Shown: one piece after another, positions 1 to 3,747 of the stretch
Numbering within the stretch: the stretch's first letter is position 1
How the letters are laid out: each line of letters opens with the position of its first letter
Assembly (NCBI GenBank): GCA_031459385.1
Contig: JAVKIP010000002.1
Coordinates: 190,091-254,090 of the forward strand
DNA: 64,000 nucleotides
Source: Candidatus Fervidifonticultor secundus
GTDB taxonomy: Bacteria > Sysuimicrobiota > Sysuimicrobiia > Sysuimicrobiales > Humicultoraceae
Reading direction: 5' to 3'
Program-made: the position numbers and the translations under genes
The notes under the pieces: generated by a model
What the model was told of the DNA's origin: nothing
Seen by the model: the letters and a program-made list of their open reading frames with translations, nothing else
Databases searched by the model: none

Positions 1-451
1 CATCGAGGTAGTCGGTCATGGCCCGAATCACCTCGGCGCGCACCCGCTGGATGGCGTGCTGACGGCGGCTGCGCAGCCACAGGTGCCGGTGGTCCATGAG
101 GAACTCGATGCCGTGCTCCTTGGGCGTAATCGGGTACGCCTCGGCCTTGTGGACGACGCGCAAACCGGTGGCAGCCAGCTCGACGCCGCCCGGCGCGCGG
201 CGGTCGGCGCGCACACGACCGACGAGGATTAGGCTGCTCTCCAGCGGGAGGCGGTCTGCGGTGGCGAACACCTCGTCCGGGACGTCCTGCTTGCCCATGA
301 CGGCCTGGACCAGGCCCGTGCCGTCACGGATCAGCAAGAAGTGGATCTTGCCGCTGCTGCGGCGGTTCGTCAGCCACCCCCGCACCTCGACCTCCTGGTC
401 GAGGTGCTGCGGCAGGAGGTCCACGGCGACCGCGGGGGGCCTGGTCAACAC
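1..451 (-). CDS. asnS: Asparagine--tRNA ligase, N-terminal part (runs off the window edge)
   Basis: Manual minus-strand translation gives GWLTNRRSSGKIHFLLIRDGTG...YPITPKEHGIEFLMDHRHLWLRSRRQ, the OB-fold and hinge typical of AsnRS. GTG start at about 451. Not in the ORF track because it is truncated. Confidence 0.9.
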   Translation of the reverse strand, partial: MLTRPPAVAVDLLPQHLDQEVEVRGWLTNRRSSGKIHFLLIRDGTGLVQAVMGKQDVPDEVFATADRLPLESSLILVGRVRADRRAPGGVELAATGLRVVHKAEAYPITPKEHGIEFLMDHRHLWLRSRRQHAIQRVRAEVIRAMTDYLD

Positions 452-523
452 GGCCGCGACCTGCCCCCAGGGACCGACGGTTCGTCCGCAGAACTAGCGC
501 CCGGACGGGTGGCCAACGGCGCC

Positions 524-1153
524 GTGATCGTCATCTTCGACCTCGACAACACCCTGGTGGACTCGAGCATCGACTTCGCGGCCCTGCGCAGGGCGCTGCT
601 CGATCTCTGGGAGACGGCCGGGCCGCTGCCGGCGCCGCGGGAGGACTTGGTGCGCCTGGCGATCCCGGAGATCGTCGCGAGGCTGACGGCGGCTGCGCCC
701 GCGCTCGCGCCGGCCGCCTGGGCCCTGGTGGAACGCTTCGAGGTCGAGGGCCTGCGCGATGCCCGTCCGGTCCCCGATGCCGCCCGGGTGCTCGCGACCC
801 TGGCCGCCCGCGGCGTGCGCATCGCCGTGCTCACCAACAACAGCCGTGCCGCGGCCCGCGCCGCCCTGGACGCCGGAGGCCTGGCACCGTACGTGACAGT
901 GCTGGTCGGCCGTGAGGATGTGCCTGCGCTGAAACCGGACCCCGCCGGTGTACGCCAGATCGTGGCGCGACTGGGCCCGGGGACCCCGTACGTGGTAGGC
1001 GACTCCTGGATCGACGCTGCCGCCGCCGCGGCGGCCGGGGTCCGATTCGTGGGCGTCGGGCGGCGCCGGGCAGACGTCGAAGCCCGAGGCATCCGCCCGT
1101 GGGCATGGATCTCCCGTCTGGAGGACCTGCTCACCGTCGATCTGCGGGCCTGA
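524..1153 (+). CDS. HAD-family hydrolase (phosphoglycolate phosphatase-like)
   Basis: Motifs IFDLDNTLVDS, LTNN, KPDP and VGDSWID. Start moved to GTG at 524. Confidence 0.85.
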   Translation: MIVIFDLDNTLVDSSIDFAALRRALLDLWETAGPLPAPREDLVRLAIPEIVARLTAAAPALAPAAWALVERFEVEGLRDARPVPDAARVLATLAARGVRIAVLTNNSRAAARAALDAGGLAPYVTVLVGREDVPALKPDPAGVRQIVARLGPGTPYVVGDSWIDAAAAAAAGVRFVGVGRRRADVEARGIRPWAWISRLEDLLTVDLRA

Positions 1154-1202: not shown

Positions 1203-1646
1203 CTACCAGAGGTGCGAGAACTTCCGCGCGAAGCGCTGCTCCAGTTCGTCGCGGTTCAGGTGGTACACCGGGCACTCTCGGAGCATGCACACGTGCAGCG
1301 CCGTGTTGCAGTAGGCCTCGGGGACCTCCCAGCACCGCCGGTTCACGTAGTAGGCGGCGCACACCCCCCGGCGGGTCGCCGGGAGTTCCGCTCCCGGCCC
1401 GGGGCCCGGGACAACTGGCGCGCCCGGTGTGGCCCCCGCCGACTCCGGATCCCGCACCAGGCGCAGAATCGGCCGCGCGTCCCGGGCGGGCGCCTCAGCG
1501 CCCCCGCCGCGGGAGGCGACGGCCGGGACCACCGGCTGTTCCAGTACCGGCGGGGATGGCGGCGCGGCCAGCGCCTCCAGTTCCCGAGAGGCCGTTTCGA
1601 TGAGGTTCCTAACGCCGCGCCGGAGCTCCTCGCGCCCGCTGGGCAT
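1203..1646 (-). CDS. Hypothetical ParA-partner protein: ParB-like N-terminal peptide, Pro/Ala/Gly linker and Cys-rich (CW-type) C-terminal domain
   Basis: Overlaps the 3' end of parA and has GAGGTG just upstream. N-terminus ELRRGVRNLIE; C-terminus CAAY..RCWEVPEAYC..C..ECPVY. Confidence 0.75.
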   Translation of the reverse strand: MPSGREELRRGVRNLIETASRELEALAAPPSPPVLEQPVVPAVASRGGGAEAPARDARPILRLVRDPESAGATPGAPVVPGPGPGAELPATRRGVCAAYYVNRRCWEVPEAYCNTALHVCMLRECPVYHLNRDELEQRFARKFSHLW

Positions 1647-2424
1647 GAGCGATCACCTCGTGAGCCAGGCTCATGTATTCTTTGGCGCCCCGCGACTCAG
1701 GATTCGTGAGAAACAGCGGCACGCCGCTCATCGACGACTCGACCAGCTTGATGTTGAAGTGAATCGTCGTGTGAAAGACCTGATTGGGGAAGTACTCGTG
1801 GATGCCCTGGAGGATCTCTTTGCTGATCGTCGTCCGGGAGTCGTACATCGTGGGGAGCACGCCGACGATCTCCACCTGGTGGCCGAGTTCGTCGCGTACC
1901 ATCTTCAGCGTCCGCAGCAGCTGACGCATCCCCAGCAGCGCATAGTAGTGGGTCTGGATCGGCACGATGATGCCGTCGCACGCCACCAGGGCGTTGAGCG
2001 TCAACAGCCCCAGCGAGGGCGGCGTGTCGATGATGATGAACGCGTAGCGCTCCCGCAGGGGCTGGAGCCGGCGCCGCAGTGCCTGCTCGCGCCCGATGCG
2101 GGAGACGAGTTCCATCTCGGCGGCCGCCAGGTCGATGGAGGACGGGGCGACCTCCAGCCCCGCCACCGGGGTGGGACGGACGATCGTGGCCAGGGGCAGG
2201 CCCTCGTCCGTACTGCTGTCGACGATGACATGGTAGACAGTGCGGTCCAGCGTGGCCGGGTCCACCCCCAGGCTGACCGTCGCATTGGCCTGGGGATCCA
2301 GGTCGACCAGAAGCGTCCGGTGCCCAGCTGCCGCCAGCGAGGCGCTGAGGTTGACAGCAGTCGTGGTCTTGCCGCATCCGCCTTTTTGGTTGACCAAACC
2401 GATGACCTGCGCCTCGGCGCTCAC
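1609..2424 (-). CDS. parA: ParA/Soj-family ATPase (orphan, no parB adjacent)
   Basis: Deviant Walker A NQKGGCGKTTT, plus DLDPQANAT, IDTPPSLG and YDSRT. Confidence 0.93.
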   Translation of the reverse strand: MSAEAQVIGLVNQKGGCGKTTTAVNLSASLAAAGHRTLLVDLDPQANATVSLGVDPATLDRTVYHVIVDSSTDEGLPLATIVRPTPVAGLEVAPSSIDLAAAEMELVSRIGREQALRRRLQPLRERYAFIIIDTPPSLGLLTLNALVACDGIIVPIQTHYYALLGMRQLLRTLKMVRDELGHQVEIVGVLPTMYDSRTTISKEILQGIHEYFPNQVFHTTIHFNIKLVESSMSGVPLFLTNPESRGAKEYMSLAHEVIAHAQRARGAPARR

Positions 2425-2473
2425 CCGGGTCGCTCCCCGGACGCCCGCATCGCGGCGTCACATTTGCCTCGCT

Positions 2474-2499
2474 GTTCGACCTGCCGCGAACGTTCTCCT
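2474..2499 (-). promoter_or_regulatory. Sigma-H-like promoter upstream of parA
   Basis: Minus strand reads AGGA-N18-GAAC, about 50 bp upstream of the start codon. Confidence 0.4.
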
Positions 2500-2589
2500 C
2501 CGTTGGGGCCCGGCCTGGCGCGGCAGGACTGCCCGGGGGCCGGGGAAAAGTAAGCGGTGAGCGCGTGAGTGCGGCAGGGGGTGGAGAGG

Positions 2590-3747
2590 ATGCGAATCAC
2601 GGTGAGCGTCATCAAGGCGGACGTGGGGGCCGTCGGCGGCCACACGATCCCCAGCGCGGAACTGCTCGCCATTGCACGCGCCGGCGTGGACCGGGCCAGG
2701 GGGACGCTGCTCGTCGACGGGTACGTCTGCCACTGCGGCGATGACCTGGGCCTCATCATGACGCACACCCATGGCCCGGACAGCCCCGAGATCCACCAAC
2801 TGGCCTGGGACATCTTCATGGAGGCCACGGAGAAGGCCAAGACGCAGGGTCTCTACGGCGCCGGGCAGGACATGCTCAAGGACGCGTTCTCGGGCAACGT
2901 GCGCGGGCTCGGTCCCGGCAGCGCGGAGATCGAATTCGAGGAGCGTCCCAACGAGGCCCTGATGGTCCTGCTGGCTGACAAGTGCGGGCCGGGCGCCTTC
3001 AACCTGCCGCTCTACCTGGCCTTCGCCGACCCCATGTACTCACCCGGGCTGCTGCTCTCCGAAGGCCTGCACGACGGGTTCACTTTCCACATCATGGACA
3101 TGGACCACACCGAGGGCGACCGCGTCATCGTGCTGGAGGCGCCGGAGCGGCTGTACGACATCGCCACCCTGCTGCGCGACACGAACCGGTATGCGATCGA
3201 GTCGATCTGGTCCCGGAAGTACCCCACCGAGCAGGGCGCGGCGGTTGGCACGACCCGGCTGCGCAACATCGCGGGACGGTACGTGGGGAAAGACGATCCG
3301 CCGGCGGTCGTGCGGGTCCAGAAGATCTTTCCCGCCACCGAGGAGTTCGGTCCACCGTTTGCGGTGGGAGCGTTCGTGGGTGGCGACACCCGGGGCAGCC
3401 ACAACCTGCCGCTGATGCCCGTGCCCATGAACACCCCGGCCTCGACGTTCTTCTGTGTGCCGATGGTGTGCGCCTTGGGCTTCTCGGTGCACGACGGCCG
3501 CCTGACAGGGCCTGCCGATCTGTTCGCCGACCCGTTCTGGGACCGCGTGCGTCACCAGATCGCGGCCAAGGCCATGGAGATGCGCCGGCAGGGATTCTTC
3601 GAGCCCGCCACCCTGCCCTTCTCGGAACTGGAGTACGGGGGGATCGTGGCCCGGCTGGCGCGCCTCGACCGAGAGTTCCGGATCCGGGACGGCCGACAGC
3701 CCGCGGCGCCCGCGGGTGTGCGCGCCGACGCCGGCGACCCCGACTGA
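2590..3747 (+). CDS. fbp: Bifunctional fructose-1,6-bisphosphate aldolase/phosphatase (class V FBPase)
   Basis: SVIKADVG..GGH, GDD, LYGAGQDMLKDAFSGNVRG, ADK..PGAFN and YVGKDDP (Schiff-base Lys). RBS GGAGAGG before ATG 2590. Confidence 0.95.
   Translation: MRITVSVIKADVGAVGGHTIPSAELLAIARAGVDRARGTLLVDGYVCHCGDDLGLIMTHTHGPDSPEIHQLAWDIFMEATEKAKTQGLYGAGQDMLKDAFSGNVRGLGPGSAEIEFEERPNEALMVLLADKCGPGAFNLPLYLAFADPMYSPGLLLSEGLHDGFTFHIMDMDHTEGDRVIVLEAPERLYDIATLLRDTNRYAIESIWSRKYPTEQGAAVGTTRLRNIAGRYVGKDDPPAVVRVQKIFPATEEFGPPFAVGAFVGGDTRGSHNLPLMPVPMNTPASTFFCVPMVCALGFSVHDGRLTGPADLFADPFWDRVRHQIAAKAMEMRRQGFFEPATLPFSELEYGGIVARLARLDREFRIRDGRQPAAPAGVRADAGDPD

Follow-up and report, generated by a model that had tools for sequence, protein, structure and literature searches.

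A second, terminus-proximal ParA-like ATPase and a small cysteine-rich protein form a conserved gene pair and candidate positioning module in the phylum Sysuimicrobiota

Close to the start of the window analyzed here, a 64,000-nucleotide (nt) stretch of the genome of Candidatus Fervidifonticultor secundus (phylum Sysuimicrobiota; assembly GCA_031459385.1, contig JAVKIP010000002.1, positions 190,091 to 254,090), a gene for a Soj-like ParA ATPase overlaps a gene for a small protein with a cysteine-rich C terminus; we call them parA2 and the partner gene (Table 1). On balance, we lean slightly toward reading the pair as a ParA/MinD-type positioning module that would operate beside the canonical ParAB-parS system, with the partner as the activator of ParA2 and its adaptor for a core cargo. 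The evidence is that the pair is kept throughout the phylum, that ParA2 is a paralogue distinct from the canonical chromosomal ParA, and that the partner begins with an invariant peptide resembling ParB's ParA-binding motif.

Results

Conservation of the gene pair

The pair was noticed in a first-pass annotation made from the letters of the window, which described an intact Soj-like ParA with KGGCGKT, YDSR, and NIKL motifs that overlaps a 147-amino-acid (aa) gene and has no parB beside it. These observations hold: all three motifs are present in the 271-aa open reading frame (ORF), the two genes share 38 nt, and a Pfam scan of the neighboring genes found no parB, the immediate neighbors being a HAD hydrolase and a fructose-1,6-bisphosphatase (FBPase). 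The same annotation had the layout of the partner right; according to the ORF list, the protein starts with MPSGREELRRGVRNLIE, continues through a Pro/Ala/Gly-rich middle, and ends in a C terminus with five Cys. The sequence GAGGTG lies 7 nt 5' of the partner ATG. Within the overlap, the same bases code for both the ParA2 tail RGAPARR and the partner residues GREELRRG, and overlap or abutment of the two genes is kept at the other loci examined. At one locus (L015), the ParA2 frame runs into a different tail and the partner keeps SREELRRGIR; because the ParA2 tail has changed there while the partner motif has been kept, selection within the overlap, so far as these sequences tell, acts on the partner frame.

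We regard the partner ORF as truly coding, and not as a chance ORF, because its GC content is 0.88 at third codon positions (0.95 in the C-terminal domain) versus 0.57 at second positions, where it differs from 10 orthologues it does so mostly at third codon positions, and it has 148 homologues at E ≤ 0.01 among the 580 candidates returned by a word-index search. The homologues that carry a name are all called "hypothetical protein" and come from metagenome-assembled genomes (MAGs) labelled Armatimonadota, Firmicutes, or "bacterium." The partner had no Pfam or NCBIfam match at E ≤ 1, nor at E ≤ 10, and ParB_N, HTH, and CTPase domains were not found in it. We take it to represent a new, unnamed protein family restricted to the phylum.

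Whole-genome searches found the partner in all 41 relatives and, across the phylum, in 91 of 94 genomes, a sample that spans one order with 7 families and all 31 of its genera. All 54 high-quality genomes have it, and the three that do not (G044, G078, and G087) are each 65 to 72% complete. In every one of the 29 genomes examined for adjacency (7/7 families), parA2 lies directly upstream of the partner gene, on the same strand and overlapping or abutting it, so that the conservation of the pair, which the first-pass annotation had proposed as a check, is borne out. The adjacency set comprises 30 loci, as one genome (G007) was fetched twice, and includes the source genome (G000); at two of the 30 loci the ParA2 sequence is truncated where the fetched stretch or the contig stops. 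The partner family was not seen without parA2 at any locus examined. The counts over 41 relatives and 94 genomes include two unpublished genomes (G010 and G019), and G019 also supplied L006, which counts once among the 30 loci and once among the 13 upstream regions described below; the conclusions are unchanged without them. It is a chromosomal locus, inherited vertically and present across the phylum.

ParA2 as a second ParA

By its Pfam matches, ParA2 is a member of the ParA family (AAA_31, 1.8e-56; CbiA, 1.8e-23; both above cutoff), and we judge that it is not an equivalog of any named model, as it falls below every curated NCBIfam partition model (NF041546 ParA_partition, 108.6 bits versus a cutoff of 180; TIGR03453, 116.4 versus 348). 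Residues K14, G15, G16, K19, and T20 of the deviant Walker A motif NQKGGCGKTT are invariant in an alignment of 20 sequences (A3), as are D41, D43, and D133. The closest solved relatives are 8ray_B (ParA family, 2.6e-63, 217 bits) and Thermus Soj 1wcv (187 bits); the NIKL of ParA2, in which K226 is nearly invariant, aligns with NVRL in both. The C-terminal tail is Arg-rich, and no membrane-targeting helix is obvious in the protein.

The relatives show what the canonical system of the phylum looks like. In the same-genus genome G002, the gene order yidC-jag-rsmG-parA-parB is found a few kilobases from dnaA, and each of four good assemblies has two strong ParA genes, one of them adjoining parB; we call the product of the latter ParA1. 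Against solved chromosomal ParAs, ParA1 scores higher than ParA2 (259 and 237 bits versus 217 and 187). Identity to the ParA2 of the window is 68 to 95% for orthologues and 45% for the canonical ParA1 of G002. In a tree of 19 ParA2 and 3 ParA1 sequences, the two form separate clades with 100/100 support, and the median tip branch of ParA2 is 0.12, against 0.85 to 1.31 for ParA1; by arithmetic on these branches, the same genome pairs are about 2 to 3 times closer in ParA2 than in ParA1. The tree came with a warning of long-branch effects, and one ParA1 row is of odd composition, with a start that was not verified. Signatures that are invariant in the phylum and specific to ParA2 are KGGCGKT, IQTHYYALLGMRQL, and IHFNIKLVESS, at the last of which ParA1 has IPRSVRLAEAPSHG. 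ParA2 is, on these comparisons, a paralogue distinct from canonical ParA1, and it appears to be highly constrained.

Across the assembly of G000, there was no match to ParB_N, and the single strong AAA_31 match is the ParA2 of the window. We considered a phylum without ParB altogether and dropped the idea, since ParB_N is present in 39 of 41 relatives (the misses are G000 and G017) and canonical parAB lies beside dnaA in relatives. Contig C1 of G000 starts 3.5 kb from dnaA (C1:1-4000, locus L026), at a point that we take, by size and position, to lie inside jag/yidC. Because relatives keep parAB by dnaA and C1 starts near dnaA, the canonical rsmG-parA-parB of G000 was most likely lost in an assembly break and is not biologically absent. 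In G002, the rsmG reading frame occurs twice in tandem (L025:4153-5839), a repeat that may be what breaks assemblies. A search of all of G000 for parS-like sites, allowing up to 2 mismatches, found none, as one would expect of a genome in which the parAB region on the oriC side was not assembled. The description of parA2 as an orphan thus holds only in part: no parB adjoins it, but it is not the sole ParA, and the separate canonical parAB near oriC that the first-pass annotation suggested looking for was found beside dnaA in relatives.

The partner N-terminal peptide and linker

Outside the C-terminal domain, the most conserved part of the partner is its N-terminal peptide. Columns R5, E6, E7, L8, R9, R10, G11, and R13 are invariant among 32 members (alignment A1), and in a model of the full-length protein residues 2 to 27 form a helix with predicted local distance difference test (pLDDT) values of 88 to 97. 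The stretch L8-R9-R10-G11-V12-R13-x-L15-I16 matches L-G-R-G-L-G-A-L-I of ParB at five of nine positions (L, R, G, L, and I) and has V where ParB has L at another. ParB of the phylum carries the motif R(G/A)LGRGLGALIPGA near its N terminus, as seen in four genomes of three families. The resemblance of LRRGVRNLI to ParB's ParA-binding motif, already pointed out on first pass, appears well founded, as the peptide is invariant in the family and shares five of nine residues with phylum ParB.

The peptide is followed by a variable linker of 40 to 115 residues, 38 to 66% of them Pro, Ala, or Gly. A short motif within it, RPILRLVR, is also conserved (P59, L61, R62, L63, V64, and R65 are invariant or nearly so in A1); the f4 and f5 sequences inspected do not show it.

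This arrangement can be compared with the activators of other ParA/MinD (A/D) ATPases, for which we draw on excerpts of the published work. According to these, A/D ATPases commonly bind their partner's N-terminal region, and a positively charged C terminus points to the nucleoid as the matrix (PMC11407121, excerpt). Specificity resides in the partner, in which an N-terminal charged stretch serves the ATPase and the remainder serves the cargo (bioRxiv 2022.06.09.495121, excerpt). A 22-residue peptide of PomX with K13 and R15 suffices for PomZ activation, PomX-N is Ala/Pro-rich, and an activator can be obtained from a peptide of this kind, positively charged and N-terminal, "grafted onto an interaction domain" (PMC7993993, excerpt). 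The ParB motif is a ParA-binding helix, with its hydrophobic face toward the cis subunit and its central Arg/Lys toward the trans subunit (PMC12462528, excerpt). By analogy, the partner fits this design of an activator with an N-terminal peptide.

The cysteine-rich C-terminal domain

In alignment A1, the five Cys of the C-terminal domain (C96, C105, C113, C120, and C125) are invariant, together with W106, P126, and the terminal W147, giving CWE and CPVY motifs. With its five Cys, its CP motif, and a His that is nearly invariant, the domain may hold a metal or Fe-S site. The domain is mildly basic (net charge 0 to +6, pI 7.05 to 9.5) and is predicted to be small and helical, with pLDDT 87 to 93 in the full-length model and 68 when modelled alone. 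Foldseek found no match in the PDB for either the full partner model or the C-terminal domain model. A VIA comparison returned trivial single-helix matches only for the full model (Z ≤ 3.6) and a best Z of 2.9 for the domain model with pLDDT 68; the ESM Atlas gave nothing at 0.9 or above, with structural TM ≤ 0.54, and a sequence profile run against the PDB gave a single chance row (E = 0.093).

Searching a profile of the domain (A2, 20 sequences) against 1.84 billion representatives retrieved 65 proteins at E ≤ 0.001. Full members of the family account for 53 of these (72 to 355 aa, at least 101 bits), and in them the domain is always at the extreme C terminus. One further protein (P0175) is a chimeric-looking family member, and another (P0176, a 47-aa row whose sequence was not read) matches only the last 26 positions of the domain. 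Six rows that matched in multiple stretches were treated as unrelated; the one that was read, P0173, is a Cys-rich repeat protein. Four remote relatives look genuine: P0177 (4e-8), P0179, P0180, and P0181 (6.7e-6). They have in common with the partner the pattern C-x-AY-x5-CWEV-x4-C-x6-C-x4-CPVY-x4-EE(I/L)E, and hhalign aligned the partner domain with the relatives over 47 columns with a probability of 98.3% and an E value of 2.3e-14. We conclude from these alignments that the domain is a remote homologue of CW-rich domains of Actinomycetota.

The first-pass annotation had called this region a CW-type module and proposed a search against the two-CW profile. What stands is a conserved Cys-rich CW domain, homologous to CW-rich domains; membership in the two-CW family does not, as the partner has one CW (C105-W106), not two, and had no match to the "two-CW domain" model NF045718 (cutoff, 35 bits) at E ≤ 10. 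The four relatives carry an extra upstream CWEI, and two of them match NF045718 weakly (P0177, 14.7 bits, E = 0.03; P0181, 12.8 bits, E = 0.12). The relatives, for example the one at L027:4530-5411(+), are unnamed proteins with tandem CW-rich Cys domains, and a word-index search with P0177 matched only itself. The term "two-CW domain" was not found in the literature searched, which is searchable by term and not by sequence.

Upstream element, neighboring genes, and chromosomal position

Upstream of parA2, the sequence GTCGAAC is invariant in all 13 aligned regions. The combined motif AGGAnA-N(12-13)-GTCGAACAG occurs in 3 copies in G000; it is near the gathering score of no Rfam family and is not a sigma-70 consensus, and a sigma-70 and terminator scan was uninformative. 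The element is probably the promoter or operator of the operon. At the f2 loci and at L020, an extra ORF of 132 to 138 aa, rich in Ala, Gly, and Val and with no Pfam match, lies between the element and parA2 (for example, L014:6906-7322(+) and L037:2811-3209(+); also at L021), and it is a possible third operon member in f2 and in one genus of f1.

Table 1. Features of the parA2-partner locus, in window coordinates
Feature	Position	Strand	Description
parA2	1609..2424	-	271 aa, GTG start; second, oriC-distal Soj-like ParA/MinD-family ATPase
Partner gene	1203..1646	-	147 aa, ATG start; unnamed family confined to the phylum; proposed ParA2 activator/adaptor
Partner residues 1-27	1566..1646	-	Invariant REELRRGxR in predicted helix; proposed ParA2-binding, ATPase-activating peptide
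Overlap of parA2 3' end and partner 5' end	1609..1646	-	38 nt; translational coupling
Partner residues 58-65, RPILRLVR	1452..1475	-	Second short conserved motif, within disordered linker
Partner residues 92-147, Cys-rich C-terminal domain	1206..1373	-	Proposed metal-binding cargo/target module
Upstream element AGGAnA-N(12-13)-GTCGAACAG	2472..2499	-	parA2/fbp intergenic region
HAD hydrolase	341-1153	+	Neighbor
Class V FBPase	2569-3747	+	Neighbor, divergent from parA2

The FBPase is an archaeal-type class V enzyme (FBPase_3, 1.2e-153). It is missing from the position next to parA2 in families f4 and f5 and at the single f3 locus seen, where the gene for the CCA enzyme directly precedes parA2. 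The wider neighbors are a CCA/poly(A) polymerase-HD enzyme, a YtxH-like protein, MnmA, and MgsA/RarA.

The GC skew of contig C12, on which the window lies, is positive from 1 to 140 kb and negative from about 142 to 154 kb to the end. At this plus-to-minus switch, 50 kb upstream of window position 1, is the only ATAA-N6-TTAT of the 3.30-Mb assembly (C12:139,902-139,917), which we call dif-like, the pattern being the core of Escherichia coli dif. The dif-like site marks the replication terminus (Ter), and the window is thus 50 to 114 kb from it; the operon itself (C12:191.3-192.5 kb) is at a distance of 51.4 kb. On a 3.154-Mb contig of G002, 1.657 Mb separate the operon from dnaA and 49.9 kb separate it from the dif-like site. 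The longer pattern CATAA-N6-TTATG is present in 41 of 94 genomes, mostly once, and a reversed control mostly gave zero. The eight genomes with site and partner on a shared contig (f1, f5, and f7) all have them close together, at 50, 51, 56, 60, 61, 68, 97, and 98 kb. Of the other 33, 32 have site and partner on different contigs and one (G087) has the site and no partner match.

This proximity extends to more than the operon. The block of about 50 kb from dif to the operon (G000 C12:136-196 kb) is collinear with the corresponding regions of G028, G036, and G030 (contigs G028:C19, G036:C12, and G030:C45; loci L042 to L054), in which 21, 36, and 32 of 92 ORFs, respectively, are in order; the set covers three families. 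Since the whole block is syntenic, proximity to Ter is not specific to the operon, and we downgraded it as a sign of a Ter-specific function. G036 is rearranged next to its dif-like site. There is no repeat array flanking the operon, no clustered 14- or 16-mer in C12:90-254 kb, and no 9- to 12-mer whose enrichment within 100 kb of dif survives correction (best Bonferroni value, 0.14).

Discussion

Binding of the partner to ParA2, stimulation of the ATPase, nucleoid binding, metal binding, and the cargo are all things that we infer, and the module that we lean toward would work as follows. ParA2, catalytically intact, probably binds the nucleoid as an ATP-bound dimer, because it has Lys at the position of the DNA-binding Arg of Soj, an Arg-rich tail, and no obvious membrane-targeting helix. 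The partner would be its dedicated ATPase-activating adaptor: the invariant amphipathic helix REELRRGxRxLI would dock on the ParA2 dimer as LGRGLGALI of ParB does on ParA, and the variable, Pro/Ala-rich disordered linker would act as a tether. The five-Cys domain, probably folded on a metal or Fe-S center and ending in Trp, would bind the cargo or assemble into it.

As to the cargo, PF00936 (the shell protein of bacterial microcompartments [BMCs]), CheW, FlhA, and encapsulin were not found in G000, which is 97.6% complete. With these marker genes absent there, BMCs, chemoreceptor arrays, flagella, and encapsulins, the protein cargos known for ParA-like ATPases, are out as cargo in G000. None of the 94 phylum genomes has a MinD above cutoff (12 weak matches, at most 112 bits versus a cutoff of 213) or a MinC above cutoff (one match, 20.7 bits). 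Given the universal presence of the pair in the phylum, the high constraint on ParA2, and the lack of MinCD, our leading guess, a circumstantial one, is that the cargo is a core cell-cycle structure, such as the divisome or its positioning cluster. The excerpted text of a study of CSP1-3/Sysuimicrobiota has no mention of ParA or cell division (PMC11604079).

Several points weigh against this model. The first 27 residues of the partner are net neutral (-2 to +1) and predicted to be helical, whereas many partners of such ATPases are described as positively charged and disordered. The CW-type domain is not itself ParA-specific, because at none of the six loci of its relatives (L027 to L032, all Actinomycetota MAGs) is there a ParA within 5 kb. 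Our analysis found no cargo, and the neighbors of the operon are housekeeping genes; the absence of MinCD is only circumstantial for a role in division. Moreover, all of the genomes are MAGs, and that of the source (59 contigs, 3.30 Mb) has 5.5% contamination.

More specific or different roles for the pair have to be set against these observations. In a phylum without MinCD, ParA2 and the partner could form a positioner of the division site or terminus that acts on the divisome or on Ter DNA and is coupled to redox or metal state, the partner assembling on its target by way of its metal or Fe-S C-terminal domain and terminal Trp and being moved to mid-nucleoid by ParA2 gradients. We consider this rather unlikely; if true, it would add to the ParA cargo adaptors a new kind, one made from a CW-type domain. 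A related proposal, to our minds just as doubtful, makes the partner a small centromere-binding protein of a type Ib-like system, whose Cys-rich domain would bind DNA near dif so that ParA2 positions or segregates Ter. The order of parA followed by a small partner is that of plasmid type Ib systems, the C-terminal domain is mildly basic, and the location suits the idea, with the operon 51.4 kb from the sole dif-like site of G000 at the skew switch, far from dnaA in G002, and 50 to 98 kb from the site in 8/8 shared-contig genomes. However, the collinearity of the dif-operon block across three families makes Ter proximity unspecific, the centromere-type signals sought (flanking repeats, clusters of 14- or 16-mers, and Ter-enriched 9- to 12-mers) were not found, and no DNA-binding fold was recognized in the partner model, although fold searches cannot exclude one.

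The partner might instead be a metal or redox sensor that has no cargo and gates its own N-terminal peptide, the target of ParA2 being something else, such as ParB or the nucleoid. A sensor could make use of the CP motif, the near-invariant His, and the five invariant Cys, the partner motif is close enough to that of ParB for competition to be conceivable, and relatives of the domain adjoin signaling genes at two of six loci, one with a PAS histidine kinase, a response regulator, and a T2SSE/MshEN ATPase and the other with two CheW and a methyl-accepting chemotaxis protein. The remaining four loci lack a signaling context, though, and the invariant terminal Trp and long tether would better suit a binding module, so we hold a sensor without cargo to be decidedly improbable. 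Still less probable, in our estimate, is that the partner and ParA2 do not interact at all, being cotranscribed and translationally coupled only, with the partner at work elsewhere and a coincidental likeness to the ParB motif. Likenesses over nine residues easily arise by chance, and the N-terminal segment is net neutral; set against this are the adjacency in 29/29 genomes across the phylum with its conserved overlap, the conservation of the N-terminal peptide, which exceeds that of every other part of the partner but the C-terminal domain, and the absence of any partner without parA2 at the loci examined.

If the pair is a positioning module with the partner as adaptor, it shares features with several known systems and coincides with none of them. 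It resembles ParA-ParB (Soj-Spo0J) in that ParA2 is Soj-like and L-R-R-G-V-R-x-L-I of the partner recalls L-G-R-G-L-G-A-L-I of ParB, the helix with which ParB binds and activates ParA (PMC12462528, excerpt); it differs in that the partner lacks ParB_N/Srx, HTH, and CTPase domains, the operon is near dif and not oriC, and relatives have a separate parAB. PomZ-PomX, which positions the division site in Myxococcus, likewise combines a ParA-like ATPase with a partner in which a conserved, activating N-terminal peptide, carrying essential basic residues, precedes an Ala/Pro-rich unstructured region (PMC7993993, excerpt); the setting of the ParA2 pair is a lineage without MinCD. Where PomX has a coiled-coil, filament-forming domain and a second activator, PomY, the partner has a 56-aa Cys-rich domain and no conserved third gene. 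No sequence relation of the partner to PomX or McdB was detected. McdA-McdB, a system that positions carboxysomes and other BMCs, has, as described in excerpted sources, a small partner with a charged N terminus, a long disordered region, and an invariant C-terminal Trp, comparable to W147; in contrast, the BMC shell protein PF00936 is absent from G000. McdB is not known to have a Cys-rich domain.

Plasmid type Ib par operons consist of parA followed by a gene for a small DNA-binding protein, and ParG-type partners are ribbon-helix-helix DNA binders with centromere repeats nearby. The parA2 operon has this order, and ParF-ParG also has a flexible N-terminal tail with an activating Arg (PMC12462528 and PMC7993993, excerpts). 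The partner model, unlike ParG, is all-helical and Cys-rich with no strand-helix-helix, no repeats were found, and the locus is chromosomal and vertically inherited. With the two-CW (NF045718) and Actinomycetota CW-rich proteins, the partner has in common the Cys core present in P0177, P0179, P0180, and P0181; those relatives differ in the extra upstream CWEI and in having no N-terminal peptide and no ParA nearby.

ParA/MinD ATPases for which no partner is known, and thus no cargo either, are termed orphans, and there are many of them. Here, the candidate partner of a phylum-wide second ParA could be named from sequence alone, and it would combine a new family, a ParB-like helix, and an uncharacterized class of CW Cys-rich domain. 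The pair offers a concrete two-protein system for work in vitro and would give a first functional handle on the CW-type domain. It is also a candidate for how an uncultivated phylum without MinCD, known only from metagenomes, organizes its cell cycle.

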